A stretch of DNA of 64,000 nt from Squalus acanthias (taxonomy: Eukaryota): NCBI GenBank assembly GCA_030390025.1, contig CM059449.1:15438001-15502000 (forward strand), given 5' to 3'. The notes below the pieces were generated by a model. The model was not told the origin of the DNA. It made no database searches and saw only the letters and a list, made by a program, of their open reading frames with translations. Position numbers and translations under genes: made by a program. This document shows positions 15,691-64,000 of this stretch, in pieces. Each line of letters starts with the position of its first letter. Position 1 is the stretch's first letter.

Positions 15691-15891
15691 GAGACGGTAC
15701 AAGAATAGAAGTACACTGTAATATATGCGAGTTTTTTTCACATTAATTATAAATATAGGGTTATTGTTACTTATATTAAGGGAATGGCCTTTATCGCGGT
15801 TTAATGCTAGCCGGAGTAATGAATGTCGCATAAATGAAAGGCTAATATAGACAATAGTAGCTTGTAAGTAAGACACTGTAACAATCCTTAC

Positions 15892-18800
15892 CATGCGGGG
15901 GGATGTCGGCATAGACCTCTTCATCACTGAACCACAAAGGGAGGAAGAAGCAAATCGTTACATGTTTAAAACATGCAGTACGTGTCACATGAAAATAAAG
16001 GCAGCAAAATGTCACAGTGATATCTACGCACCATTGCAAAGGTGGAGCGAATTCTGTGGAAAGACAAAGAACAAACAAAGAATATCTGTTATATCTGAGA
16101 ACGTATTTAGCACAACTGCATTCTTAACTACGTCTCGGTTTTTATCATTTGTCAATAATAATTAATAAATGTTTATCTACGGGCAGTGGGAGTGGGAAGG
16201 GTGCACTGCAGTCGGCTCCCATTTCATGGTGCGAGCCAGTCTCATTGCAACGCTAACTGCCGGGTGAGGGTGCCCTTTATCCCTGTCTAGAAGGGCAATG
16301 TGTAAAGATAGTTTAGGACATCCAGCATCTAGCGGGCGTGGTTGACCTGAATATAATGAAGCATTAAACGGATGATGTGTAGCTGCCCCAACAAATCAAA
16401 AGCGCTGTCATACTGATCCAATAAAAGGTATGCTTTAGAGATTTTGGCTAAAGTATAGCGTTAGTACGGTGCTGTACCTGAATGGCACTCCAGCAGTGCT
16501 CGCTGCTGATACGGTGGGTAATTTTAACCTAAGGCCGGGCGGGATCGGGCGGAAGTCCGGTTTTACATATTACCCTCCACTGACTTCACTGGAGAGTAAA
16601 ATCGAGCTGTGTGTAATGCTGGCGTTGCACCCGGTCTCTTCCATTTCCCGACGTCCGTGTTCGGTTAAAATTTCCCCGTGTCCAACAACACAAGGTGAAC
16701 AATATTACATCTCCAACAAGCGAGAATCTAACCACCGCCCCTTGACGTTCAATGGCATTACCAGCGCCGAATCCCCCACCATCAACATCCTGGGGGTTCA
16801 GCATTGACAAGAAACTTAACTGGACCAGCTATATAAATACTGTGGCTACAAGAGCAGGTCAGAGGTTGGGTATTCTGTGACGAGTATCTCATCGCCTGAC
16901 TCCCCAAAGCCTTTCCACTATCTGTAAGGCACAAGTCAGGAGTGTGATGGAATACTCTCCACTTGCCTGGATGAGTGCAGCCCCAGCAACACTCAAGAAG
17001 CTCGACACCATCCAAGACAAATTAGCCTGCTTGATTGGCACCCCATCCCCATCTTAAACATTCACTCCCTCCACCACTGGCGTACCGTGGCTGCAGTGTG
17101 CACCATCTACAAGATGCACTGCAGCAACTCGCCAAGGATTCTTCGGCAACACTTCCCAAACCCGTGACCTTTTCCACCTAGAAGGACAAGGGCAACCGGC
17201 GCATGGGAACACCATCACCTGCAAGTTCCCCTCCAAGTCACACACCATCCTGACTTGGAAATATAACGCCGTTCCTTCATCGTCACTGGGTCAAAATCCA
17301 GGAACTCCCTTCCTAAAGCACTGTGGGAGTAACATTCATGACACGGACTGCAGCGGTTCAAGAAGGCGGCTCGCCACCACCTTCTCAAGGGCAATTAGGG
17401 ATGGGCAATAAATGCTGGCTTTGCCATGTACGCCCACATCCCAATAACAAATATTTTAAAATATTAGCAAAAGGCAAGCTACTGAGTTTATTCCTTGGCA
17501 ATTCGCACAAGTATAATACCGAAGCCTCGTTGAATCTTGTTAAATGATTCTTTAATCGGTGGTGCTCACCATCCACGTTAGGTTCATCATAGATCGGCTC
17601 ATTCCTTCGGGACAACAAACAAAGAAGAGGAAATGAGTGTTACTGCAGAGTTACAGAGCAATTAGCATAAAAGATGTAGGAAACGTTAACTCTGAGATTT
17701 ACCGACCTTCCCATTGGTGGAGGAACATCTGCAAAAGTAAAAGTTCACCATGAAAGCTTTGTAACGTTAATGCAATCCGTCTGAAAACAGTTCGACTACA
17801 AGAAACTGTTTCCACTGGTGGGAGGGTCGGTAACCAGAGGACACAGATTTAAGATAATTGGCAAAAGTGCGAGAGGGGAGTTAAGGAGAATTTTTTATGC
17901 AGTGAGTTGTTATGGTACGGGAAACACTACCTGAAAGGATGGTGGAAGCAGATCCCCCGCCCCCAAGATGTTTTCTCCCTATCGCCCCTTTCCCCCAGGC
18001 TCCCGCCCCGATGTTCTCTCCCTTCTCCCCTGATGCTCCGGTTCCGATATTCTCTCCCTGTCCCCCCGTCCGCATCCCCCCCACCCCCACCCAATGCTCC
18101 TGCCCCGATCTTCTCTCCCTCACCTCCCCGATGCTCCGGCCCCGATGCTTCCCTCCCTCCCTCCTGCCCAATCTTCCTCCGGCCCCCGACAACCCAACCT
18201 CACCTCCGGCCCGCACCTGATTCCCTCCCACCTCACAGCTCCCAACCAGCCTTTCCGCCCTGCACCCAACCAGGCTCCGGATTAAAATTCCGGCCATGGT
18301 AGCACCCAATCACCAGCCCGAGTCAGACCAGTTAGTTCGGCATATCTCACGGATCCAACCATGGGATCTCTCTGGCACTGGTGACTCAGGAGTACACCTG
18401 GCAGTGCATCTAGATTTTGAAGCAACCGGTCCATTGAGGAGCAGGTTAACTGCTCTGCAGGTGCGTCACTCACCAGCTGGATTAATTTCATCATAGGCGG
18501 AACCAGCGATGTCCATCCAGGGTCTGGGAAAGAGAAAAACAAACAATCACATAGCTGAAACAAAAATCCAGCTGATTAAAAAAATGCTTCACCCTCATAA
18601 CCACCAACCAACCTTTGTGCTTGCGGAGCTAACTCTGTGGGAATAAAAGTCGAAAATTAAGGTCTATCCTTTGATGCAAACAAGACATTTGATACTTTGA
18701 AATGAGATTCAAATTATATGTGCCTCTTATGTCCATCCAGCAATAATAATCAGCGAAACTACTGAAGTCCTTTACCAACAATAATTGCTAATTTAAAAAA

Positions 18801-21800
18801 AATTGTTTAAAGGACTATTTAAAAAATCGACCAGTTAAATACATATAACTAATACTTACCATTAGAAAGAATGTTACTGCAAGGCGCAATATTGCTTTGG
18901 GATCAAAACGGAAAAGGGAAAAAGATGTCAGTGGATTGAATATCTAAATGCACATCAATTAAATAGAGATATAAAGAGAAGAGTGATCAGCACTTCAATA
19001 TTCACTGACCGTTGTAACCGTGCAGGTTCGAGACCTGCGGGAATAAAAGGTGATGGAGAAAGTGTTACAACTTTACTACGGGCGGACGGTAGCATCGTGG
19101 TTATAAGAACATAAGAAATAGGAGCAGGAGTAGGCCATTCGGCCCTTCAAGCCTGCTCCGCCATTCAGTAAGATCATGGCTGATCTTCTCCCTCATCTCC
19201 ATCTCCCAGCACTATCCACATATCCCTTGATTCCCTTAGAATCCAAAAATCTATCGATCTCTGTCTTGAATATACTCAATGACTGAGCCTCCACAGCCCT
19301 CTGGGGTAGAGAATTCCAAGATTCACCACCCTCTGAGTGAAGAAATTTCTCCTCACCGCAGGCCTAAATGGCTGACCCCTTATTCTGAGACTGTAACCCT
19401 TAGCTCTAGACTCGCCAGCCAGGGGGAAACATCCCTCAGCATCGACCCTGTTATGTTACTAGACTAGTAATCCAGAGGCCTGGGCTAATGATCCGAATAC
19501 ATGGGCTCAAATCCCAGCACTGGCAGCTGGGGAATTTAAATTCAAATAATTAAATAAATCTGGAATAAAAAGCTATTATCAGTAATGGTGATCATGAAAC
19601 TACCGGATTGTCATAAAAATCCATCTGGTTCACTAATGTCTGGCCTATATGAGCCATAGCAATGTGGTTGACTCTGAAATGGCCTAGCAAGCCACCACCA
19701 AGGTGGCTCACCACCACCTCCTCGAGGGCAATTAGGGATGGGCAATGAATGAATAAAAAATAAATAAACTTTCCTTATTTGAAAGAACAGCATCCCCAAC
19801 CACAATCCGGTCAAGATCAGCTGACGGTTTCAACTGAACGAGACCAGTATCGTTTATGTAATAAACCGACTCAATCCCTAACCATCTGAAAATGTCTGGT
19901 ATTAAATATAATCATTTAATATCATTTTCTGTGCCTGAACTACAAGCAGCCCACGAATGTAAAAATAAGAGCCTAAAAATTGCCATTAATAACTTTTACT
20001 GAGGGACACCTGCCGCATTATGGAACGTGGAATAGTTCGGATTATACTTTAACAATGTAAATTGAACAATTTGTTCATCCATTAGTAATGCGGAAAGATA
20101 AATATCACACTAACCCACCAAAGGTACATTTCCCACTGGCATTTCATAGCCTATTCAAGCAAAACGTGTTCAGAGTGGTAAAACCGAGCGATTTGAACGA
20201 GTCACTTACGATCTAAAGGGATGCCTTCATAAAATCGATTATTCATTCTAAATCTCAAAGAAAAAAGGCGCATTATCGAACAGTACACACATGTTATATA
20301 CGTCAATTTTGGAAAAAAGTTTTTTGTGGGTAGGGGAGATTTACCAACCTCTGAAATTGTAGGCGGCGAACTGTAGAAATGAAAAGTAACAATAAAAGTA
20401 ACAATTTGAATATAAACATTACTAAAAAGAACCAAGATTAACTGGCCATTATCACATTGTTGTTTGTGGGATCTTGCTGTGCGCAAATTGGCTACCGCGT
20501 TTCCTGCATCACAACAGTGACTACACTTCAAAAAAGCACTTCATTGACTGTAAAGCGTTCTGAGGGCGTGAAAGGCGCTGTGTGAATGCAAGACTTTCTT
20601 TACAACAACATCAAAGGCGAACCAAATGTCACTGGCGTTTGAATGCATGCATCTACTTTATGGTTATATTCGGAAGCGCAATATTGCTCTTTCAAATAGT
20701 TACCTTTTGTCAGACCATAACCTGCGGAGAACAGGAGGAAAGCGACTAAAACTCCGGCAGCGGTGTACAACAAGCTGTTGCTTAGCGACGATTGGCTGGT
20801 TGGCTCTGTGGTCGGTTGTACTGGGAGCCGGCCGAGACAGAAGACAAAATAAGAGATTAGTTTCACCCAGAACATCACTTACTGACTCCCGCTCTCCACT
20901 GCTGGTGAATGTACAGCGTGCCCCGACACCAGCCAATAGGTAATGCTATTTCAATGGGTGATGAGAACTACAGGTGCAGCGGTGCTGATTTTTTCCATCT
21001 CCCCCCCATTTGCTAATTGGGCTTGTGATATTTGTTATTTATATTTTTGACTTTAACAGCTAATGTTTTTTTTCAAATTGATACAAAGTCAATTGTTATC
21101 GAAAATATATCGTGACAAAACACTTAACGATTATAATCTCGTCATTGAATTATCTGTTCTCAATATTCTATGGAAGAGGGGTTGGTTGTGTATGTACAGA
21201 GGAACCTGGGTATCCTTGTACACAAGTCACTGAAAGCAAACATGCAGGTGCAGCAAGCAGTTAGGAAGGCAAATGGTATATTGGCCTTCATTGCATGAGG
21301 ATTTGAGTACATGAGCAAGGATGTCTTACTCCAGTTATACAGGGCACTGGTGAGACCACACCTGGAGTACTGTGTGCAGTTTTGATCTCCTTACCTAAGA
21401 AAGGATATACTTGCCATAGAGGGAGTGCAGCGAAGGTTCACCAGACTGATTCCTTGGATGGCAGGACTGTCGTATGAGCAGAGATTGGGTCGACTAGGCC
21501 TGTATTCACTAGAGTTTAGAAGAATGAGAGGGGAGCTCATTGAAACGTATAAAATTCTGACAGGGCTAGACAGACTGGATGCAGGGAGGATGTTTCCCCT
21601 TGCTGGGGGGTCTAGAACGAGGGGTCACAGTCTCAGGATACGGGGTAGCACAATTAGGACTGAGACGAGGAGAAATTTCTTCACTCAGAGGGTGGTGAAC
21701 CTGTGGAATTCTCTACCACAGAAGGCTGTGGAGGCCAAGTCACTGAATATATTTAAGAAGTAGATAGATTTCTAGACACAAAAGCCATCTAGGGGTATGG

Positions 21801-30074: not shown

Positions 30075-30910
30075 TTTTTTTATTCTTTCAAGGGATGTGG
30101 GCATCGCTGGCAAGGCCAGCATTTATTGCCCATCCCTAATTGCCCTTGAGAAGGATGGTGGTGAGCCGCCTTCTTGAACCGCTGCAGTCAAGGTACATCC
30201 ACATTGCTTTTCGTAGCAGTTCCTTACATTTTAGAGGACACTGATAGTCAAACACAATGCTGTGGGTCTGGAGTCACATATAGGCCAGGCCACATAAGGA
30301 CGGCAGATTTCCTTCCCTAAAGGGGCATTCGTGAAGTAGATGGTTTTTTTTCAGGAGAATCCAATAGTTTTGTGTCACCATTACTGATACTAGCTTTTTA
30401 TTCCAGATTTATTTAATTTAATTGAATTCAAATTCCCCAGTTGCCGTGGTGGGGTTTGAGCTCACATCACCAGAGCATTAGTCCAGGTCGCTGGATTACT
30501 AGTCCAGTAGCATAACCACTATGCTACCGTTCCCTAAATATGTTTGTGCATGCACCTGATTATTTGTGTGTGGCTATATGTATTTGCGAGTGTCTGTGTG
30601 AGTGTTTCTTTCTATGTGTGTAGGTGTTTGAATTCTGGGACTGTTAGGTTTCATTTCATGCCTTTCCTGGTTGGCTTTCTGTTGAATTATAACTAATATT
30701 TTAGTCCCAGCTCTATTGAATTTCGATTTTCAACTTGCCGCGCCTGTGTGTAAACCTGGTATTTGGGATGGGCCGCACCTGTGTGTCAAGTTGAGAATCT
30801 ACCGCACATCTTCAAGAAAAAAAGTTGGGCCGTCCAACCTCGTTTCTGCTTTAGATTTTTACATCCAACAGAGCGAACTTTTTACATGATAATCTACCTG
30901 AAAAAGTAAA
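30075..30910 (-). pseudogene. Relic terminal exon and 3' UTR of a gene C paralogue
   Basis: Colinear with 50128-50987 (SINE plus unique sequence); acceptor retained, but TAC of YIIM* reads TAG. Confidence 0.65.
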
Positions 30911-38091: not shown

Positions 38092-39242
38092 CTACCTCGT
38101 GAAGGTGTTGGCTACCAGCTGCTCCCGAGCAGCCTTACTTTGAGCAGCAGTTGGCTCTTCCCCATCATGCCTTCCCACAGGCACATTGACATTGTCCACG
38201 TCCTCCATTTCTGCAGATAGTTCATCTGCAGCGTTAAGGGTCAGTCCTTCCTGCAGGGCAAAGTTATGCAAAGCACAACAGGCCACCACAATCTTTGCCA
38301 CTTTCTGAGGAGAATACTGCAAGGTCCCCCCTGACCTGTCCAGGCACCGGAAGCGTGATTTCAGAACTCCAATTGTCCTCTCCACCACTTGCCGTGTGGA
38401 CACGTGTGCCTGGTTGTATCTCTCCTGAGCCTCATTATTGGTCTTGCGGTAGGGAGTCATCAGCCATGGTCTTAGCGGGTAGCCCTTGTCGCTCAATATC
38501 CATGCGGATCCTGGAGGCAATGCGTTGAGGACGCCATATAAGTCAGAGTTACGGAGGACGAAGGAGTCATGATTACTTCCACGGTTACCTGCATTCACAT
38601 TTAAGATCCTGAGATGCGCATCACAGACAATCTGGACATTCGGTGAATGAAACCCCTTCCTGTTGATAAATGTCACAGGTGCAACCCCTGGTGCCTTCAA
38701 TGCTACATGGGTTCCATCGACAGCCCCAATCACTTGGGGAATCCAGCAATGTTATGAAATGCAAGCGCCATCTCCTTTTGATGGCGAGCAGACAAGTCAT
38801 ACTTAATGAACTCAGAAGTCCTACGGTAAATGGCTTCTGTGACCTGGTGAATGCAGGCCCTCGCAGCATTCTTGGATATGTTGCAAATGTCACCGGTGCT
38901 TGCCTGAAAAGTCCCACTTGCAAAGAAGTTCAGTGCTGTGGTTACCTTCATGCTCAGTGACAATGCATTGCGGTTCTTCGTGCGTGTTTGAAGGTCCTCC
39001 TGTAATATCTCACAGATTCGGCCAATTGACTCTTTACTGAAGCGCAGCCTCCTCACACACAGCTCCTCCGACAGCATCTCAAATGACAGCCTCTGCCTGT
39101 ACACTCTATTTGGTGGGTAGTAGTTTCTCCTTCTCTGGAGGAGACGGGCTTGGTTCCTCCGTCTGATTAGTTGTCTGTATTCGAAAATTCTCAGATACGC
39201 AATCACACAGAGGAGGAAGAACAATCGATTGCAAAAGGGCAT
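38092..39242 (-). pseudogene. Harbinger (HARBI1-like) DDE transposase with a 1-nt frameshift near 38733
   Basis: GFPK/VIGAVDGTH, NRKGFHS, GSNHDS, DKGYPL, YNQAH..TRQVVERTIGVLKSRFRCL, CCALHN. Confidence 0.92.
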
Positions 39243-40464
39243 CTTTCTCTCACACAGGCTTCCTCCTCAAACTGAAAGTTGTAATGAAAAAATGGAAATA
39301 GTTGTTAAAGTAACTTTAGTTAAGTGAGTGGCTATAAAATCAGGTCAGGCTATGGTGGGACACGTGCGCTATCAGCTTGGGAACACATCTACCCGCCACA
39401 CGGCCCTAGCTGATTTTCCAAAACTGTAACATTTTCATAAATTCATACATACATACATACATACTTACTTACTTACTCATGTTCATCTTTAAAACTTTTT
39501 GAAACGTAAACAGTTCATTTTTAAACTTTCATTTTCACAGATAGATACCTAAATATGCCTTGTACACACCCACAGTTGCTATACTACTCCAAATGGTCAA
39601 AACCCGTTTTAAAAATTTTTTTTTTAAAACTCTTAACTTATATAAGACTTCATTTAAAACTTTTGTGTCTTTCAGATTTAAAAAACTCACCTCAGTAGCC
39701 ACACTCCAAAAGGATTTCTTCCTCCTACTTATCTCGGCAAATGTATAAATGGCTGCTGCTCCTGGTTTTAAAATGTGTAACTGCTCGGAGCTTACACACA
39801 CTACTCTCATTCACAAAATACATGAATTTTCCGACGCACGCGCAGAATCACCAGCCCACGCGATTACTCGCATATCCATGAAACTGACCAGACATGAAGT
39901 GCCGGTTTTCAGCGCATGCGCAGTGCATGCCGAAAACCGGCAATTGCAGAGGGAATACGCGAGTGTACGCAGTGCGTACTCTCGCGCACCAGGATGAATT
40001 TTTGGGCCATTAATGTTTGTCATTTTTTAAACAGGTGCAAGATGAGTTTCAATCCCCCGGGTGCGTAAACACCCACTGAAATTAGTGAAGGATGAAACTG
40101 AACTGTGAGGCGTTATTCCTTTGTTTCAATGTACCGCTTGTGCAATGTTAAAGTAGTGCTTCTTTCTTATATATTCTTAAAATATGACGTTTCCGACTAC
40201 AATTGGAAAACGTGCTTAGTGAACAGAGTTCCTCTGTGCTTTGTTGAACCACCAGAGGGGTTCGTCATATAAGTCTGCGTCTGTTGTGGGATGTTTGTTA
40301 CACTTAACAACACATTGGGACGCTGCCGGTCAGAAGTTAGCTCGTAGTGTCCTGCGGAGCAAGAGTCAAAATGCAAACTATTCACATGTGGCTGTTCTTG
40401 AATTTACTGACAATACTTTTGTATATCGGGGAGCCGCAGTCTTCTGATGTTCACATTTTAATTT

Positions 40465-43025: not shown

Positions 43026-43082
43026 GGTCTGTAATTCTGTAGGTCACTATTGACAGATTGCATTGTTCCATTTATACTCTAG

Positions 43083-43420
43083 ACAATGGGTTGATGAGTG
43101 AGATCAGAGTGTTCCAGTCCCCAGATGCCATTAATGTAACAGAAGGAGGATCGGTGCAGCTGAACTGCACTTTTGACGCGAATGGTTCTGTTGGACATGT
43201 TGCTTGGAGGCGGGCCTCACAAAACATGGAAGTGTCGGTTCGGAATCCTTTCTATCAGAGCCGGATAACGAAGTCAGGGACGAAATTATTTGCCAAAAAA
43301 TGGTTTTCCTTGAAATCATCAATTTAATGACAATGGACTCGGATTTTTACTACTGCGAGGTGGAAATTGCGGCGGATGGGAAAGCAAGCGGGAGAGGAAC
43401 ACAACTTATAATAACTGACA
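43083..43420 (+). pseudogene. Gene B V-set Ig exon (frameshifted)
   Basis: VFQSPDAINVTEGGSVQLNC..VAW..FAKK / MVFLEIINLMTMDSDFYYCEVEI..GRGTQLII split over two frames; ctag acceptor, gtgagt donor. Confidence 0.9.
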
Positions 43421-45515
43421 GTGAGTAGAAAAGATCAGAGTTCGTTTTAAGAATTTACCAATATTTTGACATTGGAATGGCTGTACATGTGCTACGCTAA
43501 GAGATTTCAGTTCGGTTGCCGGATTGTGTCCGTGTGTCAGTATCACTTTCAAAGTACATCGGGAACAATTGTTCGATAATTAATATCCTGAAAGTGCCAT
43601 ATATGTGACATGAATCTGGCTATTCAAGGCGCGGTGCTTTAGGAATAGGATTACACGAGCTTCAAGCTACTCCCCCACCACCCCACAACCACCTGAAGGT
43701 GAGTGTTATCTCAAAATAATACTTGGCATTATCGCTTGATTTTCTTGCTTGGCACCTTACAAATCTCTGTTAGGGCAGCTCTGTTCCTCCTTTTTTACAA
43801 AGCTAATGAGGTCGACCTTTTCTGTTTTTTTGTTTCTCTCGTAACCTAGCACTAGAACACGAGGGAACAGGCTAGCGTTCACTCCACCTCTGGGACTTGC
43901 ATGTATCCCTTGAGCCTGAGTGACCAGAAATAAACACAATACTCAAGATGCCATCTGATCAGAGTACTGTACGGTTGGATCCCCACACCATATAAAAGGA
44001 AACATGCCTTCTATATGTTTTATTCCTTTCTGGGATGTGGACGTCGCCCAGCATTTACTGCCCATCCCTAATTGCCCTTGAGAAGGTGGTGGTCAGCCGC
44101 CTTCTTTAATCGCTGCAGTCCGTGCGGTGAAGGTACTCCCACAATGCTGTCAGGGAGGGAGTTCCAGCATTTTGACCTAGCGACGATGAACGTACGGCCG
44201 ATATATTTCCAAGTCAGGATGGTGTGTGACTTGGAGGGCGACTTGGAGGTGGTGGTGTTCCCATGCGCCTGCTGCCATTTTCCTTCTAGGTGGTAGAGGT
44301 CGCTGGTTTAGGAGGTGCTGCCGAAGAAGCCTTGGCAAGTTTAATGAAATAGGCTTTAGTTAGAATTTACTGTTTTCGATATAAGCCTTTATTTTAAACA
44401 GGTTAGCGTCTTGGTTAAAATGAAGGGCATGTGGAATGCTAGTATTGCAACAAATAATTATAGTTTTTTTCACTTTCCACGGGGATGCAGTACCTTAGAT
44501 TACATATACAAATAGGAAACGGCTTTTCTTTAACGGATAGAAAGCCACTGGAATGATATTTGAGTTTTCATAACCTATAACCTATATCCAAATTTAATTA
44601 TTAAATTGCGAACTCGTGACCTTCGTTATGTCTATTTCTGATTTACATTGATGGGGGGTGAAATCGGACATGGGTGGATCGCGGATCACATTGGATCGCC
44701 TGTTATACACTCCGCCCAGTATTAGGTCCAATTGCCTTAATATAAAACTGAATATTGGGCGCACCAAACCGAAATACTGCGGATGCTGGAAATCTGAAAT
44801 AAGAAACAGAAAATGCTGGAAATACTCAGCAGGTCGGGCAGTATCTGTGGAGAGAGAAACAGAGTTAACTTTTCAGGTTTCTGACAGAAGGGCATCGACC
44901 CGAAACGTAAACTCTGTTTCTCTCTCTCCCTGCAGATGCTGCCTGACCTGCTGAGTGTTTCCAGCATTTTCTGCTTTTTATATTGAATATTGGGCATGTT
45001 GTACAACAGTCGGCCAATATGATTCTGTCTGCCTTGCGTGCCTGTCAATGTCAAATTTCACCCCTATAACAACACAAAAGCAAAATAATGCGGAAGCTGG
45101 AAATCTGAATTAAAAACAGAAAATGCTGGAAATACTCAGCAGGTCAGGCAGCATCTGTGGAGAGAGAAACAGAGTTAACGTTTCAGGTCGATGAACCTTC
45201 GTCAGAACTGGAAAAAGTTGGAGATGGAACAGGTTTTTAAGCAAGTGTAGGGGCCTGGAAAGGGGGGAAGGGAGGAAAGAACAAAGGGAAGGTCTGTGAC
45301 AGGACGGAAGGCAGGAGAGATTAAGAGACAAAAGGGATGATGGTGCAAGGCAAAGGGTGATGGTAATGGGACAAGTTAAGAAACAAAAGATGACTCTGGA
45401 TGAAGTGTAAATGGCAATGGCAGAATGATCGATCACCCCACCATTTTCTTGCATTATCTTTCACTTTAACCAAGCACCACCATACTGACTATATTATTGT
45501 TTCTGTTTCTAACAG

Positions 45516-48265: not shown

Positions 48266-50958
48266 GTCTATTCCCAGTTACTAACGGATGTGGTTCCACA
48301 GCACAAATCTTCAGCATTTATTGTCACATAAGTGGAAATCTCAACCAATCGGTAAAACCCTTACTTCTGGGGTAGAAGTTTGCGGTTCAAGGGCCACTCC
48401 AGGAGTTGCGCACGTCAACTACGCGAATGTCCACTGCAACACTGATGGAGTCTGGGAGTTAAGCCTGGGAGGAGCAAAAGGGAACGTTTGGCTGGGAAAT
48501 TGGCACTGCAGTAACGCTGGATTCTCCTTTTATCAAAATCCATGACGTGCCCCGGCAATGCTGAACGCCTAGACAGTGAAGAGAAAAAATCTACCCGCAT
48601 CCGTCGGAAATTAGTTTGGTGTGCCAAGCTTTGAGACGTCATGCCAACTAATCATTTCTCGGGGAGGTGGTTCGGCCGAGCTCCTGCCGTGACATCTCTG
48701 GAAGTTCGGCAGAACCCCGCTTTAGCTATTACGCGCTTCTCTGAGTTCCGCCGATCTTCCGCCGACGTTACCGCAGGAGAGCGGGAGAACCCCGCAGAAG
48801 TTATTCACCCCCCTTGAGTTTAACATAAAACATTCATTTTAATAAAAGGTACAACGGAAAATCAACAGAACAACCTGACATGGGTCAACTGAGAAGAACT
48901 TTTATTACGAAAATATGAAATACTTTACAGGATTATGATGAAATGTAAGGAGTTATGTGATGAAACTAGGCTGAGTGAACAGTAACGAGTATGAATGCTC
49001 AACATGTTGGTTTTCATTTTAACAGCGGCATGAACCAGTTTATTTTCTAGGATAGCACGCCCCTAAACATAGGGGACTAATACATGTCATACAAATGTGA
49101 TAAATGTTCACAACTAACACTAAAGAGTCTAATGTTAAAGCATTGGAGATTCCAAGCCCTTGTTACTGAATTATGTGTGGATAAACCTCACTCACTAAGT
49201 TAGAGGTCAAAACATTCGCCTGGAAATTCCCATGGAGGCTTCTCCGATCATCCGCCATTGAAGATCCCACAGAACCCCCGAGCTTCCGCCCAAGTTACGG
49301 CGGGAGATCGGGACAACTCTGCGGAAATTCCAGAACTTGTCCATCGGGGCAGGGGCGTCTCATCATTGGGGTGAAATGTATCGGCTCCTCTTACTTCACC
49401 GAAGCGTACAGCACCGCTTCTCGCTTCACAGGGCGCTCAGTTTGATTGCTGTCCTGAAGATTCAGCGTGGCATATTGCAACTTGTCATCCCCCTCTCTCT
49501 ATTGAGATGAAAGGGTTTCAGTGTTGAATAAAATATTGTAAACTGATTATATCGTAGGGCCTCTAACCCAGCGCACCAGATGTTGTGCAGTTTCAATGGC
49601 ATATAATTCCACCCAGTAAACATTCTACATATAATTAGAATATGACTCCACCTATCAAATATTGTTTCGTTAAATAGGATTGATCGCGTCGTTCCAAATA
49701 TTCCTGACCATTTGAATATATTTCAGCGAGTCAACGATTGCACGATTTAAGTAACAAGCAAGGGAAACATTCGATGTAATTAACACTTCATTATAATGCT
49801 AAATCCATGCATTTAGAACAATTCACACTTAGTGAATTCAGGAGCAGTGGTTCAGTCAGCATTTGGGAAAGACAGAGTAACATTTGGGAATAACTGTTCA
49901 GGAGCACTTTCCGTTCGAAGGCAAAGAGCCAGATCACCGGTTACCCTGTGTTGTCTCCTCCAGGTGCTGACTGACCTACTTTACATATCCAGCACTTTCT
50001 GTTACGGCTTCAGATTTCCTCCTTATCTCGACTTATCAAAGTAGGTGTATTTTTGCCTGTGTGCGTGTGTATGCCTGGGTGCCCCTATTTGGGGTCCATT
50101 TTAATGTTCCTGGGTGTATCTCCCTGCTTTTTTTATTCGTTCATGGGATGTTGGCGTCGCTAGCAAGGCCGGCATTTATTGCCCATCCCCAGTTGCCCTT
50201 GAGAAGGTGGTGGTGAGCCGCCTTCTTGAACCGCAGCAGTCAAGGTACTCCCACATTGTTTTTCGTAGCGGCTTTTTACAACTGAGTGTCCATTTTAGAG
50301 GACAGTTAAATGTCAACCACATTGCTCTGGGTCTGGAGTCACATATAGGCTAGACCAGGTAAGGACGGCAGATTTCCTTCCCTAAGGGATATTAGTGAAC
50401 TGGATGGGTTTTTACAACAATCCGATAGTTTCATGTCACAATTATTGATACTAACTTTTTATTCCAGATTTATTCAATTCAATTTAAATTCCCCAATTGC
50501 TGTGGTGGGGTTTTGAACTCATGTCGACACGGATCATTAGCGCAGTTCTTCGATGGATTACTAGTCCAGCAACATAACCACTTTGCTACCGTTCCCTATA
50601 TATGTTTGTACATGCACCTGCTTATTTGTGTGTGGCTATATGTATTTGCGAGTGTCTGTGTGAGTGTGTCTTTCTGTGTGTGCATTTGATTGAATTCTGG
50701 GACTGTTGTGTTTCATTTCATGCCTTTCCTGGTTGGCTTTCTGTTGAATTATAACTAATACTTTAGTCCCCGTCTCTATTGAATTTCGATTTTCAACTTG
50801 CCGCGCCTGTGCGTAAAACTGGCATTTGGGATGGGCCGCACCTGTGCTTTACGCCTGTGTGGCAAGTTGCGAATCTACCCCACATCTTCAAGAAGAAAAG
50901 TTGAGGCCGTCCAACCTAGTTTCATCTTTAGATTTTTACAACCAACTGAGAGAACATT

Positions 50959-53900
50959 TTACATTATAATGTACCTGGAAAAGTAAACAAGAGGTCAGTA
51001 GGTTTAAAAATAACATAAAATAGCCCAAGTCATTTTGCTACATACCCGATTTGTTCTTCGGCACTTAGAGCTGTCAAAATTCCTCTCTATAAAGCATAGA
51101 AAAAAGAAAAAAGAAAGTCTTGCATTTATATAGCGCCTTTCACCACCTCAGGACGTCTGAAAGCGCTTCACATCCAATCAAGTACTTTTTGAAGTGTAAT
51201 CGCTGTTGTAATGTAGGAAACGCGGCAGCCAATTTGCGCACAGCAAGCTCCCACAAACAGCAATGTGATAATGGCCAGATAATCTGTTTCAGTGATGTTG
51301 GCCAGGACACCGGGGAGAAGCGCCAAGGGATCTTTTACGTCCAGCTGAGAGAGCAGACGGGGCCTCGTTCTGCTGTCTCATCTAAAAGACGGCATCGCTG
51401 ACAGTACTGCGCTGGGAGTGTCAGTCTAGATTTTTGTGCTCAAGTCTCTGGAAAGGGACTTGAAACCCACAACCTTCAATGATTTCAGAGGCGATGGTGC
51501 TATCAACAGAGCCACGGAAAATGACCCTGCATAATTTAATTTACTTGAACAGTGTATACAATACAATACAACATATTGTGCCTTAGAAATAGCGCTGTAA
51601 TGCTCTGTGGTATAATGCTATAGGATACAACATAACATGGTAGGAAACAGGAGAACGCAATGAAATAAAGTATACAGTAGGATGTACTGTATTGCACAAC
51701 AATAAAACGATGCAATTAGTATGGTCCAACATATAATACGCGACCACGCATATATAAAACAGCCTAAGGTTTTTCTGTGCGATATAGACGGTGTTCATAT
51801 CAGATTCCTAGGCCCACTATTTAAACTGTTTACTTTAAACTAATGGGAAAAGCAATTTGATATGAGCGCGCCAATCACTCGTACGAGAATAGGGTGATGT
51901 CCAGTCTAAACTACAATAATATATGATATATAATACAGCATAACATTGAAACGTACTTTCAAATATCATGTAATAATTCATCACAGAAAAAATCAGCATG
52001 TAGTAAGAAATTAAAAAAAAATTATATTAGCCATAAACCTTAACACTTCAAATTGAATTTGTGGCCAAGACGTCTAATATGTGTCACTCAATAGCCGTAC
52101 TGGAAGCAAGAGTTATTGAATCATAGAGTCAAACAGCACAGAAGGAGGCCATTCGGCCCAACCTGCCTGTGCCGGCTCTCTGAAAGAGCTATTAATCAAT
52201 CCCACTCCCCCCTGCTCTTTCCCCATAGCCCTGAAACAGTTCCCTTTTTAAGCATTTATCCAATTCCCTTTTGAAAGGTATTATTGACTCTGTTTCCACC
52301 ACCCTTTCAGGCAGCGCATTCCAGATCACAACAACTCACTGAGTAAATAAAAATTCTCCTAATTTCCCCTTCGCATGTTTTTGCCAGTATCTTAAATCTG
52401 TGCCCTCTGGTTGCCGACAGAATAATCAGACAGATCAATACTGAACTCTTGGTCAACGGATTATACCTGATAGATAAGAAAATTAACCACATTATCAATT
52501 AAAATCGAATTAAATCGAATGATTAAGCGTTCGGAGTTTATTAAAAATGACAGGTTGCTCACGTTTCTTTCTGTCACCCACCTGTTTCATGGATCACTGA
52601 GTAGAGCGGATCTGGACTGAAGCAAAAGAGGACATCAGAAAATGTAGGCATCCAAAACAATAAAATACATTAAAGAACAAGAAAGTGGCTTTCTTTTTAA
52701 AAAGAAGTAGATCTATGTAAACAGTTACCTGGTGGGTTGCTGAAGAGCGACTGTGAGGAGAGAAAGACAAAGACAGAAAAATTAAAGAGCTGAATTTATT
52801 GATTATATCTGCAAGAAGCAAATGAAATAATTGGTATCGAATGAAGTGAATTAAATTTTGGGGGCAATTTTAACCAAACCCGCGGAGAAGCGGACGGGAT
52901 CGGGTGCAACGTTTTGAAGCCAAATGAGAGCAATATTGGGCGGGTCTAAACCCGGCGCTCCTCCCGATTCCGTGCGTTTCCCGCCCGGTGAGTTCGGATA
53001 AAATTACCAGAGAATTTGCCAACCACATGAAATTCAGTAGAGGTATAATTTGTGCTGTTACCTCTCTTACGATGCCGGCTGATAACAACTATGACTATGA
53101 TGATGATGATGATGATGATGATCAGGAGAGGCACCGCTACCGCTGCATAGACGAGTGGTGGGATCATTGGTGCGGAATCGCCGTGGTTGCTTTCTCCACC
53201 ACCTGTGTGTAAATGTAAAGTTTATTTTGTGAGAAATAGTAGTGAAGAACAGGGCAATGGTCACATTGAGATTGAGGATCAGCAAATGGGACACAAATTC
53301 CCAATCCCCTTTGACATGCGGGGCTATTTCACACTGGCATACATCAAACTAGGCCACCGATCAAAACGCAAAATGTCACCAGTGGACAACTGGAGATATT
53401 CCCACCCTGGAAGTAACACTGGGAGAATTTTAATGTAGGGACGCTTAATGGGTTGGGGCCAGTTTCCTTTCTTTGAAATAGCGGAGGGTGAGGGTGGGGT
53501 TCGTGTGAGTTCTGTTAACATAGGAACAGGAGGGGGCCATTTAGCCCCTCCAGCCTGTTCCACCATTCAATGAGATCATGGCTGATTGCGACCTAACTAT
53601 ATATAACCGCCTTTTGCCCCATATCTCTTAATACATTTGTTTAACAAAACTCTATCAATCTCCGATTTAAAATTAAAAATTGATCCAGCATCAGTTGTCG
53701 TTTGCGGAAGAGAGTTCCAAACTTTTACCACCCTTTGTGTGTGTAGAAGTGTTTCCTAATATCACTCCTGAAAGGTTTAGCTCTAATTTTTAGACCCTGG
53801 AGATCCAATAGGTCCAGAGCACGAACGAGAAAATCTTCCCCTCGTATTTACGGGATGCTTAAGACAAATCGAACATCTGGAAATTAGAAGTGCCGAAACT

Positions 53901-56900
53901 GGGTGATCAACGTGGTTCTTCCGCGGACCCATCTTTGCATTTTGTTGGCGTGCAATGTTGTAATTTCTATTTACACACACAACTATATCCGTCACTACCT
54001 CCATTTACAGGATGACAGTGAAATCTAACTTATAATACATGTGTTGTTTGGTTTATTCCCAATATTGGTACGCGGTGATTTCAAGGCTCACATGTTGCTC
54101 TAATTACGGGGCTCCAGTCTTCGCCTCGCACACTGTAACTGGGTTGACTTCTTATCTATAGTCCTACCTAAAATTGTATACAGCAACTGAATGTCATTAA
54201 TATCCCCTCCATTTATTTATTTTAAAAGATAATTCTCGGGATACGGACGACGCTGGCGAGGCGGGCATGTTATTGCCCGACTATGGTTGACCCCTTGAGA
54301 AGGTGCTGGTGGGCCGCCTTCTTCTTGAACTGCTGCAGTCAGGTGTGGTGAAGGTTCTCCCGCCGTGCTGTAAGGGAGGCAGTTCCAGGATTTTGGAAGG
54401 AACAGCGACACAAGTCCAAGTCAGGATGGTGTGTGACTTGGCGGGGGACTTGGAGGTGATTGTGTTCCCCGGCGACTCCTGCCCTTGGCCTTCTTGGTGG
54501 TGCAGTTCGTGGGTTTCGGAGTTCCAATTGATCTGATGGAGAATTTACCTATACGGCCAATATTAACCCGAAGTAAAATCCCATATGACTGCGTGCAATT
54601 TCATTTGAAAGAATATCTCCACCAATCCAAACTTACTGTGTTGACGCCGTTCCACGGTCACTGTTGTCCCGGGTCCGTCTGCTGCAGCGAATCCCACGAG
54701 CTGCACTTTGCAGAAATAAAACCCGGTATCTTCCGGTTTCAGCTGGATTATTCTAATGGACGCGTTTTTCCTCTGGCTGAAATCCTCTGTACTTGCCCCG
54801 AACACCCTGCCTCTGTATTCCGCTGTATTGTTGGAAACTTCATTTCCCTGTTTGGTGCCTCGGTGCCACGTGTAACTGCCGATTCCTGTGGGACCCTCAT
54901 ATCTGCAGAGCAGGTCCGCTGTCTGGCCCGCGGTTTTGGTGAGTGATTGCGGGCTCTGAATTACGGTGATGTTTCCAACAGTAACTGCTGCAAGTGGGTA
55001 AAACAGACCATTTATACATATACAGGGCACTTCTTTGCTTTAAAGCAGGCCGTGGAAGGGCTGGTTTTAAGCAAATATTATTTCGGAAGATTTTTGATAA
55101 GGTATTCCTGATCTTTAACTTGAGGGAATAAAAGCAGAAAACATTGGATACGCTCAGCAGGCCAGGCAGCATCTGTGGAGAGAGAAACAGAGTCAACGTT
55201 TCAGGTCGACGACTTTTCGTCAGAACTGGAAAAAGTTGGAGATTTACCAGGTCTTAAGCAAGTGTCGGGGCAGGAAAAAGGGGGGAGGGGAGGAAAGAAC
55301 AAAAGGGAAGGTCTGTGATAGAGTGGAAGGCAGGAGTGATTAAATGACAAAAGGGATGATGGTACAAGTAAAAAGGAGATGGTAATGGGACAAGTAAAGG
55401 AACAAAAGATGGGTCTAGGAGAGGTTTAAATGTTTAACTTGAGGGATATTGGTGCTGGAGCTGGAGCGCCTTCGGTTTTTCGGCGCACTCCTCGGTCAAG
55501 TATAAAATGGATCTGGTACAAAGTACCTCTGTCCCGTTCCAGATAATAAGCATTCACTTTAATTTCAGTTCTCCCGATATTCTTTCTGTGTTGCCCCCGC
55601 TCTCATTAACACTTTGAGCGAGGGTGTGAAATGGGCAATCTCGAAGCCCGATGTTCTCTTCCATTTGGGGGTCATTTTAACTTTGGGTACTAAATGGGCG
55701 AGGTCGGGTCGGCTGCCTGAAATTACAACGGGCGGATGATCCGATGTCCCCCGTTTCACACGGTCGCAAACATTCAAAATCACCTCCTGGAAGTGAGGAG
55801 AAGTTAAGTCTTATCAGTCTGATCAGATTGGAAGTCAGATAATTGCTAAACCCCAGCGACCTTCACACTATTAATCAGCGGTGACTGGAGAATATGGAAA
55901 ATACAAACAGAATATTAATAGTCAAAATAATGAAACCGGCTAAATGTTACATGTAGCGACATTACAAATTGGATGAATGGTTTCCTACTTTGGGTATATG
56001 TTATACAATCGCAAATACCTCTTTAAAAATTGTTTACCGATAAGAGAAAATAGCCAATTATTTTGCGACCTCGTTGCACGCAGCAAGCAGCGCAACTCTT
56101 GCCCTGTGTTGATAACTAGAGAAAGGTTGTATCCAGTTAAATTACTATAAATAATAGGAATTGAACAAAAAAAATCATGCCTCCTGGAAACGGGTCTTTA
56201 CTGGAACACAGCCAGCACTGCAAATATTCACTGTTGTGGATAGAGAATATTGGCATTTTTGGTAGATGTAATATCATAGAATCATAGAATAGTACAGCAG
56301 AGAAGGAGGCCTTTCGGCCCATCGAGTCTGCGCCGGCTCTTTCCAAGAGCAATCCAGTTAGTCCCACTCCCCCGCTCTTTCCCTCTATCCCTGCAATATT
56401 TTTCATCATCAAGTATTTGTCCAATTCCCTTTTGAAGGCTACTATTGAATCTGTATCCACCACCCTATCAGGCAGAATACTAGGGCAATCTGTACTTCAG
56501 GGAGCAACATACATTGTGCTCTCCTGGACCAGATACAATAAACCTCTTTACCCGAGAGCTGATCCGTCTCTCACGTTTAGCTCTCTCCATCTCTCTCTGT
56601 CTTCCTCAGTCTCTCTTTCTCTCACACACACACACGCACGATTGTAACCCATTTCTCTCTCTCTCTCTTTTCCTATTCCTATCAATCACTTCTTGATTTA
56701 ACCCGTCTACCCTCCCACTATTTCCAACCTTGATGCTGTCATACGCCATGGGCCATGGGCCCTTCACTTAAATGCCTCAATTCAAAATAAGCAACCTCGA
56801 AAGCGTTAGCTTCTCTGTGGCGAGCCCTGGTTAACTGCGAGATTGATTATATTACCAGGACATTAATCATTACCACGGCGCTGAGATATTAAGATGGTTA

Positions 56901-57314
56901 ATCTCGCATCTATGAGAACGTCCGCACGAGCCTGATGTTTTTTAAATTGCAGGCGAGCTGGTCATGAATATAAAATGGTTTAAATCCACAATTTGGTGCT
57001 GTGATCAGCAAATATGGGATATCGGAATAAGATTTAACCAGATACACATATAAGTAAGAAAAAAATAGATGGGAGGACATCGCTATGGGTATCTAATATC
57101 TAATAAAGACATAGAATATTTCATTAAAGTCATAAGAAAATTATGGAAATTAAAATCAGTCCGTTTCAATAACCGGCGGCCGCTCCGCAACGCCAGCTTT
57201 ACGCCCAGGCGGCAAGTTGAAAATCTACCCCATATTCTTGAATGGACCTGATGTGTCAGAAATAAGCTTACCGGAGAACATAGCGAATGCCCAGGCAACT
57301 GCAGCCCAATTCAT
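50959..57314 (-). CDS. NCR3: Gene C: NKp30/NCR3-like receptor with uncharged TM and Tyr-motif tail
   Basis: Exons 57272-57314 (MNWAAVAWAFAMFS), 54637-54987 (V), 53062-53202 (TM), 52729-52750, 52582-52616 (PDPLYSVIHET), and probable 51046-51070 plus 50959-50974 (ALSAEEQIGYIIM*); all phase compatible. Confidence 0.78.
53062..53202 (-). CDS. Gene C stalk and TM exon
   Basis: 141 nt, phase 1-1; LVYAAVAVPLLIIIIIIIIIVIVVI followed by basic SRHRKR. Confidence 0.88.
54637..54987 (-). CDS. Gene C V-set Ig exon
   Basis: 351 nt, phase 1-1; ITVIQSP..LLC..IGSYTW..GNEVSNNTAEYRGRV..NASIRIIQLKPEDTGFYFCKVQLVG..GPGTTVTV. Confidence 0.93.
57272..57314 (-). CDS. Gene C signal-peptide exon
   Basis: 43 nt from ATG to G|gtaagc, hydrophobic, matches the gene A leader in length. 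Confidence 0.78.
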
Positions 57315-58260: not shown

Positions 58261-59904
58261 CATCTCATTCTCTGCCCAAACATCGCACCATTAGCCTGCT
58301 CGCCTTGTACTAACAATCTGTAGCAGTTGCCAGATAAGAATTTGCCGTTCGTACCATTAGCTCTCATTATACTATCTGGTCTACACCATTGCCCTCATCA
58401 TTGGTGTCAAGACTGCACATCTGATGGACAAATCTAGGCCCACAGGGCGAGGAGCTCCTGGATTCAATGTACCGTTGACGAGATTGTTGGAGACCAGGAA
58501 AACAAGAGTTTGTAGGAATGCTGTCTTTAAACGTATGTCTCCTTGAGCCTGTTGGCAAAGAGAGCATATATGTGTTTATAGTACCGAGACACCTTGGTGA
58601 AGGACCAAGTCTCATAATGGAGAACATCCGCCAAGGTTCAAAGCAATCGGATGGGAATATTAAGGCCTCCAATGCCTATGATTTCGAAGGAGACTGGCTA
58701 AGTTCATGGAAAGGAAGGTTTTAAAGGCACGGGGCGGGATCGTCAGGAGAATAGGGTAAGAGTAGATAGCTCCTGTGCAAGAGCTATAGTGGGTGCATGC
58801 CCGATGGGGCGAATGACCTCCTATGCTGCAATTTCTATGATTCAGAGATCAAACAGAGCGTCCACATCCTATGAACAAATAAAAAAAAATCAAACAATCT
58901 CTAACATGTGCAGAGGCTGCTTGTTGCTCGGCAGAACCCAGCTCTACAGCTGCAGTAGAACTCGGCGTTCACAATTTCTCACCGTTCCACAAAGGATTGA
59001 GTCTGAAACAAGGTCGTGTGAGAGCATTTAATGGTGAAACTATAGTTAGCCAAAAGACGCTAGGCAGAGTAAACAGTGTGAGAGCGAAGGTCAGACTCCG
59101 GTAAAGGGACAAAGTTGTGTATTATGCTTCCGAAAATGAAATCAATCAACTCAATAATTCTCCATCGTTCAGGCAGCTTTGAATCGGCGATGAATGAAAT
59201 AATCCTCAAGAAGTAAATCTACTTCATCGATTCATCTGTCTATCTACCTATGAATTAGCTAACGAATAAGTGAATAAATCAATCGGCCATTCAATCGAGA
59301 GATTTACATTTAATCAAAAAGTCGAATAATCTATCGATCAGTCCACTGATCAGTAAATCAAGCAATGGCTCCTCAAACAATCGGAGAAACGCCAATCGTC
59401 ATTTGGCCAATCGGCTGATCGATTAACAGTGAATTAATCAATTGGTTTCAGTCAATGAATCAATCTTCCACTTATTCAAAAGATGAACCGTTAATTAATC
59501 CTAAATCAATCAAACAATTTTCAATCAATTCTCAGATGCTCCGACCTTCAGTCTACTAAACAATCCTCAATCGGTCAGTCAATCAATCCACTAATAAGTC
59601 AATTAGTGAATTAGTGAGCCGGCAAATACCTCAGTCAGTGAATGATTGAAACCACTGTTGTGAGCATTAGATCGTGGATCGGGAGGGGCGATGCTGTGCG
59701 TGTCACAGTCTGAGACAAGACAATTAACCACCCAGGAGTTGGTCAGTGTCCCAGTATTAAAACCACCATTACATTGTTGCCAATATTACCCCACAGCATT
59801 ACTACTTTGGAGTATTAACTGTATAGTTTACATGAAAATTCTTGAGAATAATTAATTGAAAACTCCACCACACTGTAGCCTACCCGCGTTTTCTCGTTCA
59901 GGAA

Positions 59905-61116: not shown

Positions 61117-64000
61117 ATGCAAACTATTCACATGTGGATGTTCTTGAATTTACTGACCATACTTTTGCATATCGGTGAGCCGCTGTCTTCTGACGTTCAG
61201 ATTTTAATTTTATTAATTCGCTTATGGGATCTGGGCGTCGCTGGCAAGGCCAGCATTTATTGCCCATTCCTAGTTGCCCTTGCGAAGGTGTTGGTGAGCC
61301 GCCTTCTTGAACCGCTGCAGATCGTGTGGTGAAGGTACTCCCACAGTGTGCTTATAGGGAGTGGGTTCCAGGATTTTGACCTAGCGACGATGAAGGTTAG
61401 GCGATATAGTTCTAAGTCAGGATGGTGCGTGACTTGGAGGGGAACTGGGAGGTGGTGGTGTTCCCATGCACATGCTGCCCTTGACCTTCTAGGTGGAAGA
61501 GGTCGCGGGTTTGGGAGGTGCTGCCGAAGAATCCTTGGCGAGTTGCTGCAGAGCATCTTATAGATGGTACACACTGCAGCCACTGTATGCCGGTGGTGGA
61601 GGGAGTGAATGTTTAAGGTGATGGATGGGGTGCCAATCAAGCGGGCTGCTTTGTCTCGGATGGTGTCAAGCTTCTTGAGTGTTGTTGAAGCTGCACTCAT
61701 CCAGGCAAGTGGGGAGTATTGCATCACACTCCTTACTTATGCCTTGTAGATGGTGAAAATTCTATATTTATTAAGGTGTACGATTATTTGGTTCGGCAGG
61801 TTGTTTCGTTATGCACAACTAATATATAACGAAGTTACATTGTGTAAACAAACTGTTTTATTTTATTATGCTGTGTTACTTTGCGTTCAACGGTCTAAGC
61901 ATTTTATCTTTCGGGGAGCTTTATATATATATTATACACATTAACGTTCTCCTCCATGCAGATGCTGTGAATTTGCATTATACAAATAACATAATTAATA
62001 GGCCTACTAAAATGTACTGATGGAAATAAATTAACTCACGGACTCCTGACCGACTGTGTTACACATGGAATTATCTGACATTATACCTTCTACTCGACAA
62101 TTCAACGTCTTTGCTTTCGACACAATTTATTCCATGAGCAAACGATTCATATTCAAAACATTTCCAACGTTTTCATACTTACACTTGACGTAATATAAAG
62201 GACAGGTTTCCGTCTTAAATGATTAAAGATGACAGAAGTGAAATCTTCCCCCAGTAGGACGGTGAAATACAGCTGCGTTGGGAAGTGGTGATTATATTAT
62301 GTCAATAGTTTTGCAAAGAAAACCAAGTGTGTGAAAATACAGCAGATCCCCCTTTATAAAGTGACAATTGCCTTTAATTTTTGCACCATAAAGTTCTGAA
62401 TGTACACAGCTGTTCAATCTGATTATGGAGTGCAATTTCCCAAAGTTCCGTTGAGAAACTGGAAAAGGACCCAATGTAATGACAGCTGAATACCGGTTTG
62501 TAGCTCAATGATTGATGGATCAATCAGCATTTAAAATTCTTCATAATAGCTTGTAAATTGTGGGACACAAGAGATCATTGTGTCCAAAAAAAACCTGTCC
62601 CTGTTTGACAGATACATGCTTCTTTCTCCAGAAACACACATGTTGTCTCTTGAATCTATTTGTACTGCCCACTCCCACGGCCGTCTCCAGTAACTTGTTC
62701 CACAAATCTCTTACTCTATAGGCGAACAGTTTCCGCCTAACTTCCCTTCTTACAGCTAACTAGTTAACGTCTAAAGTGTGACCCTTGGAAATTAGATCCT
62801 TCCCCACAGTGAGCGATCTATCTGGGCTCAATTCATAATAATTGTACAACGCTAATTGACAGGTTGCGGTATGTCCTGTACGGATACATTGATCCTAATT
62901 TAATCTAACAAAAAAAGACACCCAGTAACATCAATTAGTGATAGTGGAAGATACTTTAATTTGAGCTTCGCCCCTCATGGCAGATGACATTTAACGCAGG
63001 AAAGTGCGAAGTGATACATTTTGGTGGGAAGAACGAGAAGAGGCAATATAAACTGAAGGTTACGATCCTAAAGTGGGTGCCTGAACAGTGAGACCTGGGG
63101 GTATATGTCACAAATCATTGTAGGTGGCAGGGCAGGTTGACAAAGCGGTTAACAAAGAATGCAGGATACTGGGCTTCATAAATAGAGGCATAGAGTACGA
63201 AAGCAAGGCAGTTATGATGAACCTTTATAAAACACTGGTTCGGCCTCAACTGCAGTATTGTGTCCAGTTCTGGGCACCGCACTTTAGGAATGATGTGAAG
63301 GCCTCAGAGAGGGTGAGGAAAAGATTTACGGACTTGGTTCGGGGATGAGGAACTTCAGTTACGTGGATAGACTGGAGAAGTCGGAGTTGTTCTCCTTCGA
63401 ACAGAGAAGGTTGAGAAAAGATCTGATGGAGGTGTTCAAAATCATGAGGGGTCTAAACAGAGTAGATAGAAAGAAACTGTAACCATTGGCGGAAGGGTTG
63501 TGAACTAGTGGACACAGATTGGCAAAAGAGCCAAAGGCGAAATGAGAAAACCCTTTTTTCGCAGCGAGTGGTTAGTACCTGGAATGCACTGCCTGAAAGT
63601 GTGGTGAAGGCATATTCAATCGTGGCTTTCAGAAGGGAGTTGGATAAGTACCTGAAGGAAAAAATGCAGGGCTACGGGGAAAGGGCGGGTGAGTGGGACC
63701 GGCTGAAGTGCTCTTGCAAAGAGCCGGCACAGGCTCGACGGGCCAAATGGCCTCCTTCTGTGCTGTAACCATTCTATGATTCCATACTGGTCCGTAAATC
63801 TGTAGGTCACTATTGACAGATTGTATTGTTCCATTTATACTCTAGACAGTGGGTTGACGAGTGGAATCAGAGTTTTCCAGTCCCCAGATGCCATCAATGT
63901 AACAGAAGGAGGATCGGTGCAGCTGAACTGCACTTTTGAAGCGATTGGTTCTGTTGGACATGTTGTTTGGAGGCGGGCCACAGAAAACATGGTAGTGTCG
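61117..64000 (+). CDS. NCR3: Gene D (partial): paralogue of gene B; leader 61117-61174 and V exon from 63846 running off the window
   Basis: MQTIHMWMFLNLLTILLHI with intact G|gtgagc donor; V exon DSGLTSGIRVFQSPDAINVTEGGSVQLNCTFEAIGSVGHVVWRRATENMVVS. Confidence 0.85.
62975..63785 (+). mobile_element. CR1 fragment in gene D intron 1
   Basis: FINRGIEYES..LQYCVQFWAPHF. Confidence 0.85.

Follow-up and report, generated by a model that had tools for sequence, protein, structure and literature searches.

Gene C, read from the minus strand of the 64,000-nt stretch of Squalus acanthias DNA analysed here (the window), is with high probability a seven-exon inhibitory receptor of the NCR3 family whose terminal exon encodes two ITIMs, with the YIIM word at which an earlier note had ended the gene likely lying in an intron. 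The joined model leaves 246 residues open, with AG/GT at every junction, and consists of the following exons (P numbers denote related proteins, and X1 is a sequencing run described below).

57272-57314, minus strand: leader exon, ATG to donor, 43 nt coding, phase 1; tblastn with P0001 and P0002, GT donor, open frame
54637-54987, minus strand: Ig exon, single VJ-type, 351 nt, NKp30-like; an X1 contig piece ends at 54637
53062-53202, minus strand: stalk and transmembrane (TM) exon, 141 nt; X1 contig piece 53062-53186
52729-52750, minus strand: 22-nt microexon, phase 1-2; AG/GT kept in 16 complete copies; X1 depth
52582-52616, minus strand: 35-nt microexon, phase 2-1; Tyr at codon 6; X1 depth
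51046-51086, minus strand: 41-nt exon, phase 1-0; tblastn with P0004 and P0008, acceptor quality, X1 gap of 98 nt equal to 22+35+41
49391-49498, minus strand: terminal coding exon, 108 nt, two ITIMs; tblastn with six orthologous proteins, X1 contig piece 49375-49498

Tail comparisons draw on P0001-P0008, eight tail-bearing orthologues that represent five shark species, and P0009 (166 aa, no tail) is left out of the tail counts.

Identity of gene C

Judged by its sequence features, gene C is a single-V member of the shark NCR3 (NKp30) family with an uncharged transmembrane segment. Its 351-nt Ig exon contains both cysteines, the tryptophan and GxG, and forms a non-rearranging VJ-type domain within a single exon, which is a feature of the shark NCR3 family according to PMC12227049. 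Human NKp30/NCR3 is the best solved-structure match of this exon (E 2e-12; the top four PDB rows are all NCR3), and the top-ranked protein relatives of gene C all come from cartilaginous fish, the V domain being 65-72% identical to five shark proteins and 72% identical to nurse shark NCR3 (P0003). The membrane span of the present copy is a hydrophobic run in which no charged residue was found; TM exons were read in 16 copies, and a single one of these has a Glu at its start.

Three further observations concern the same exons. An ATC-repeat occupies window positions 53082-53133 in the TM exon and exceeds that of most copies by 9 nt, so that the exon measures 141 nt here as against 132 nt in 13/16 copies and 126 nt in two; the Ig exon acceptor (54984-54987) is a tandem CAGCAG, a place where a one-residue difference separates orthologue isoform X1 from X2; and upstream, positions 58305-58367 match the extended N terminus of the Heterodontus models and may mark an upstream first exon.

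A terminal exon with two ITIMs

Exon 49498-49391 encodes LQYATL and VLYASV, with tyrosines 22 residues apart, and both words match the ITIM consensus (S/I/V/L)xYxx(I/V/L), which PMC12151841 gives alongside an ITSM consensus. Neither word matches the ITSM pattern TxYxx(V/I), and position -2 of the second motif is Val in each of the 15 copies that keep it in frame. This exon is present in six of the eight orthologous proteins (five shark species) and was found 19 times in the stretches examined, where the first tyrosine is in frame in 17/19 copies and the second ITIM in 15/19, four of the 19 copies carrying a 1-nt deletion in the exon. The residue at -2 of the first tyrosine is Leu in 14 of the 17 in-frame copies and Phe in three. 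Outside the sharks, NCR3-like proteins of bichir (Polypterus, P0050) and lungfish (Protopterus, P0051) combine a juxtamembrane tyrosine with two ITIM-type motifs in the gene C layout, and such three-tyrosine tails hint that the ITIM tail may be old.

Transcript-like evidence

The transcript-like evidence consists of one contig from one run (X1) whose RNA nature is predicted only, and the splice joints are drawn from contig pieces and bin depths, the rows of the joint table being repeat-derived. In this 344-nt contig, letters 7-122 align to the TM exon and letters 221-344 to 49498-49375, which leaves 98 letters in the middle. Bin depths of 0.54, 0.86 and 0.65 correspond to 15, 24 and 18 nt at the contig depth of 4.9, which sum to the 22- and 35-nt exons, so that both microexons are covered to the base; with good AG/GT sites as well, we regard these two exons of the earlier note as real. 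The remaining 41 of the 98 middle letters fit the 41-nt exon, although the joint into that exon is itself unlisted. The 25-nt and 16-nt stretches that the earlier note placed at the end of the gene also total 41 nt, yet no GT follows position 50959, and on that path a stop would precede the ITIM exon.

The contig differs from gene C by 6 letters in the ITIM piece, and its TM piece, which fits the 132-nt TM type, shows 7 differing letters and a further 11 in gaps, so it comes from a sister copy or a related species. A different contig, with a piece of 56 nt, explains the X1 depth in bins 50696-50967 and leaves none for the 16-nt site, a reading limited by the fact that so short a contig piece may escape placement. 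Zero depth on the microexons in runs X2-X4 carries no weight on expression.

The proposed YIIM ending

The earlier note had built the tail from four stretches (52750-52729, 52616-52582, 51070-51046 and 50974-50959), whose coordinates, minus strand and translation are all confirmed, with an AG before each and a GT after the first three. It had further proposed that the tail closes on a YxxM that would make gene C co-stimulatory or dual-function, with a GIIR stop as an alternative ending. The two sites concerned are as follows.

50959-50974, minus strand: acceptor-like site and YIIM-stop, most likely intronic; Tyr in 2/23 copies, stop in 19/23, Leu in 2/23; AG lost in 5/23
52453-52466, minus strand: alternative GIIR-stop exon of the earlier note; AG present, lost in 2/18 copies; no orthologue ends in this way; an unsupported candidate

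The acceptor at 52466 and its GIIR stop thus exist in the DNA, and no transcript or orthologue support for their use was found. The third stretch is better read as the 3' part of the 41-nt exon that starts at 51086, taken in another frame. The acceptor at 51086 has a pyrimidine fraction of 0.82, as compared with 0.29 at 51070, which sits 16 nt behind it and has three AGs <=25 nt upstream. The Chiloscyllium proteins align with the 41-nt exon in the frame that is compatible with the ITIMs, and the AG upstream of this exon is kept in 18/18 complete copies (2 partial rows dropped), with the donor lost in two. That frame contains a stop in 3/18 copies, as against 0/18 for the frame of the earlier note, and the three stop-bearing copies look broken elsewhere: in one the ITIM exon is frameshifted, in another no ITIM-exon match lies alongside, and the third lacks Ig, TM and 22-nt exons. 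Neither type of count discriminates further, as codon-position counts select no frame for the 41-nt exon and divergence among copies (16-nt site 0.053, flanking intron 0.081, 41-nt exon 0.077) separates no exon from intron, although the slightly lower value of the 16-nt site is a point against an intronic reading of it.

The 16-nt stretch does not hold as the gene end, given that the ITIM exon was found beyond it and that the X1 contig skips the site. It is highly improbable that an isoform joins 52582 to 51070 and 51046 to 50974 and ends on a YIIM that recruits p85 PI3K. Such an isoform does have an open frame with AG/GT at each step, and the acceptor at 50974 is strong, its pyrimidine fraction of 0.88 exceeding the 0.65 at 49498, which is the best point for this reading. 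Its ALSAEEQ frame, stop-free in the 18 copies as noted, is also used in one Heterodontus isoform model (P0006), after an extra segment, and continues there without YxxM. It requires, however, the pyrimidine-poor acceptor at 51070 in preference to the good site just ahead of it; splicing the 41-nt exon to 50974 instead gives a frame without YxxM, and the X1 contig runs to 49498. Conservation of YIIM, the check set beforehand, came out against the proposal as well, with the tyrosine confined to the two genome copies listed above and a YxxM C-terminus in 0/8 orthologous proteins. The co-stimulatory role proposed for gene C on the strength of YIIM is not supported either.

An 18-copy tree places the two YIIM-bearing copies as sisters, so that a single recent stop-to-Tyr change explains the word; that a minor YIIM isoform has newly arisen in this pair has, in our estimate, a very slim chance. 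A YxxM occurs within 20 codons, in some frame, after 3 of the 211 acceptor-like sites in the window (the YIIM site included), and YIIM is likely a chance sequence in the intron.

Tandem copies of gene C

Copies were sought by comparing stretch 50700-51100 with the 3.7-Gb genome, which gave 29 matches. Of these, 23 are long, and every long match is on contig C26; the regions examined hold all 23 long matches and only part of the cluster. Gene C-type copies form a tandem array of about 20 at C26:15.00-15.78 Mb and 17.05-17.15 Mb, interspersed with gene A- and B-types, and in several of the copies a stop, a frameshift or the absence of an exon breaks the gene. The 35-nt exon retains its tyrosine in 17/19 copies, with Ile at +3 in all 19 and Met there in 0/19. 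The window itself contains a stray copy of the intron.

30075-30910, minus strand: orphan copy of gene C intron DNA, 85% identical, including the YIIM site with a stop for Tyr

Three gene C-type copies contain two tandem open 351-nt Ig exons (C26:15034422-15035338, 15191944-15192860 and 15527208-15528123). Gene B is a third Ig type on the plus strand (window 43043-43425 and 63866-64000), and its copy at 43 kb looks broken, being divided between two frames and containing a stop. Also within the window are minus-strand ORFs at 38095-39266 and 2890-5181, which we take to resemble a Harbinger-type transposase and an LTR-retrotransposon pol.

A microexon module shared with gene A

The earlier note had held that gene C reuses the microexon module of gene A, with Tyr at the same position, and that this module predates the split between the two genes. 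The gene A region used for comparison is as follows.

14102-20820, minus strand: gene A comparison module with TM exon, five microexon pairs and 41-nt exon; Heterodontus orthologue P0011

Gene A has five exon pairs of phase 1-2-1 (22/38, 25/35, 22/50, 22/35 and 22/35 nt) followed by a 41-nt phase 1-0 exon, and gene C has one 22/35-nt pair followed by a 41-nt phase 1-0 exon, the inner introns of the pairs measuring 89-115 nt in gene A and 112 nt in gene C. Lengths and phases therefore bear out a common module, and the tyrosine position does so in part, with Tyr at codon 6 in two of the three 35-nt exons of gene A and Cys in the third. Matching module peptides occur in the Heterodontus orthologue of gene A (P0011), and likewise in the gene C type of Heterodontus. 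The sole match to a terminal exon of gene A (12248-12186) has a stop and sits in a repeated stretch.

Identity of the module exons at the DNA level is weak, with p<0.05, uncorrected, in 1/8 shuffle tests, so that shared ancestry, including the proposed age of the module relative to the A/C split, draws its support from architecture. That the 22+35-nt module arose separately in the two genes, or moved between them later, is improbable: exon identity near chance in the other seven comparisons speaks for it, and the agreement in lengths, phases, Tyr codon, inner-intron size and the subsequent 41-nt phase 1-0 exon, together with the matching peptides in both Heterodontus gene types, speaks against it. 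A shared ancestral tail is the simplest and the likely source of the module, the 22+35-nt unit having been repeated five times in gene A and kept once in gene C.

Proposed function and a possible short isoform

Following established ITIM biology, ligand binding by gene C would lead to phosphorylation of both ITIM tyrosines by a Src-family kinase, and the phosphorylated motifs would recruit the tandem-SH2 phosphatase SHP-1 or SHP-2 and thereby damp activation. The ligand may, by family analogy, be B7-H6-like. The tyrosine of the 35-nt exon stands in the context PLYSVI, which is neither ITIM nor YxxM, and may dock an adaptor.

An ITIM-less form of gene C, produced by read-through of the 35-nt donor and serving as a decoy or weakly signalling form, is possible, although we consider it somewhat doubtful.

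52537-52542, minus strand: AATAAA of the candidate short isoform, 40 nt into the intron after the 35-nt exon; in-frame stop two codons past the donor

With 3 partial rows dropped, the stop and the AATAAA are each found in 16/17 aligned copies. P0003 of the nurse shark finishes at the corresponding position without an ITIM, and the tail of human NKp30 is varied through splicing according to PMC6514059. Against this, no transcript of the kind was seen here, the copies are 90-97% identical over the intron, which makes conservation of a 6-mer weak evidence, and an origin of P0003 by read-through is read from the protein alone.

YxxM motifs elsewhere in the NCR3 family

YxxM binds p85, as stated in PMC11599192, and true YxxM candidates are located at other sites of the NCR3 family. 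The motif stands at the 35-nt exon tyrosine in three of the eight orthologues (nurse shark and C. plagiosum). A wider protein search gave 346 matches at E<=0.001, of which 13 among the best 150 were read, and among the matches listed a further NCR3-like subfamily, represented in Scyliorhinus, Mobula and Heterodontus (P0021, P0025, P0043), has YxPM followed by an ITIM-type motif, with Asp replacing the YxPM tyrosine in Heterodontus P0020.

The counterpart of this multi-V subfamily in the present genome has four Ig exons at C26:14.770-14.778 Mb, about 0.7 Mb from gene C, and a 44-nt AG/GT-bounded stretch at C26:14794366-14794409 encodes LYTPM and is a candidate exon of that gene; it was located by protein search, a degenerate pattern search having given nothing. 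The YxPM of the subfamily is conserved in four species, beside an ITIM-type motif, and on these motifs the multi-V gene appears the better candidate for dual signalling than gene C. Two further motifs belong to the same locus (C26:14770363-14804130), namely IQYAMI, which comes after LYTPM, and YDEL.

One speculative and, in our view, rather unlikely reading is that the NCR3 cluster as a whole is a sign-switching system, in which an earlier 3' end drops the ITIMs, the multi-V gene keeps YxPM together with an ITIM, and the ITIM tail is ancestral. Were it true, gene C-types would turn from brake to non-brake, leaving the microexon tyrosine (a YxxM in nurse and bamboo shark), the multi-V subfamily would retain both YxPM and an ITIM in sharks as well as in a ray, and the ITIM tail common to bichir and lungfish would be the ancestral state of NKp30-like receptors.

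Comparison with known systems

A PI3K-recruiting relative of NKp30 would have tied NK receptors to co-stimulation of the CD28 type, and such an ending is very likely not made. The corrected model is instead an inhibitory NKp30-family gene, amplified about 20-fold, with an ITIM tail that recurs in sharks, bichir and lungfish, and it bears on whether NKp30-like receptors started as paired activating and inhibitory genes.

The closest known systems are the shark NCR3 proteins of nurse shark (QTT61898.1), Heterodontus (XP_067865393/5/6), Chiloscyllium (XP_043533716/8) and Scyliorhinus (XP_038671257), with which gene C shares, beside the V-domain identity given above, the leader, an uncharged TM, the tail exons and the ITIM exon. 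It differs from them in the roughly 20 tandem copies found here, and also at +3 of the microexon tyrosine, where gene C has Ile and the sequences of nurse shark and C. plagiosum have Met; unlike gene C, the nurse shark protein stops before the ITIMs. In the literature covered, no published account of shark NCR3 tail motifs was found, the likeliest place for one being Kinlein et al. 2021 with its supplements, which reportedly deals with shark NCR3 genes and lies outside that literature.

With human NKp30 (NCR3), its best structure match, gene C shares a single VJ-type domain, but it differs in its two ITIMs and in its TM without a charged residue. Human NKp30 signals via CD3-zeta through a charge interaction in the membrane, as described in PMC12272517, and the charged TM residue for CD3-zeta/FcR-gamma that goes with human-type activating NKp30 is absent from gene C.

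Gene C resembles CD28, ICOS and CD28X in its single V domain with a GxG strand, and is unlike them in that its supported tail has no YxxM. PMC11599192 gives PPP or EIP as the CDR3 motif of the CD28 family, and neither occurs in the translation of the gene C Ig exon. PD-1, CD28HL3 and SIRP-alpha share with gene C a V domain and two tandem tyrosine motifs in the tail, and differ from it in that gene C has no ITSM (Val rather than Thr at -2) and a V domain closest to NKp30. By analogy with these receptors, gene C likely works as an inhibitor of the PD-1/CD28HL3/SIRP-alpha type, yet belongs outside that group.
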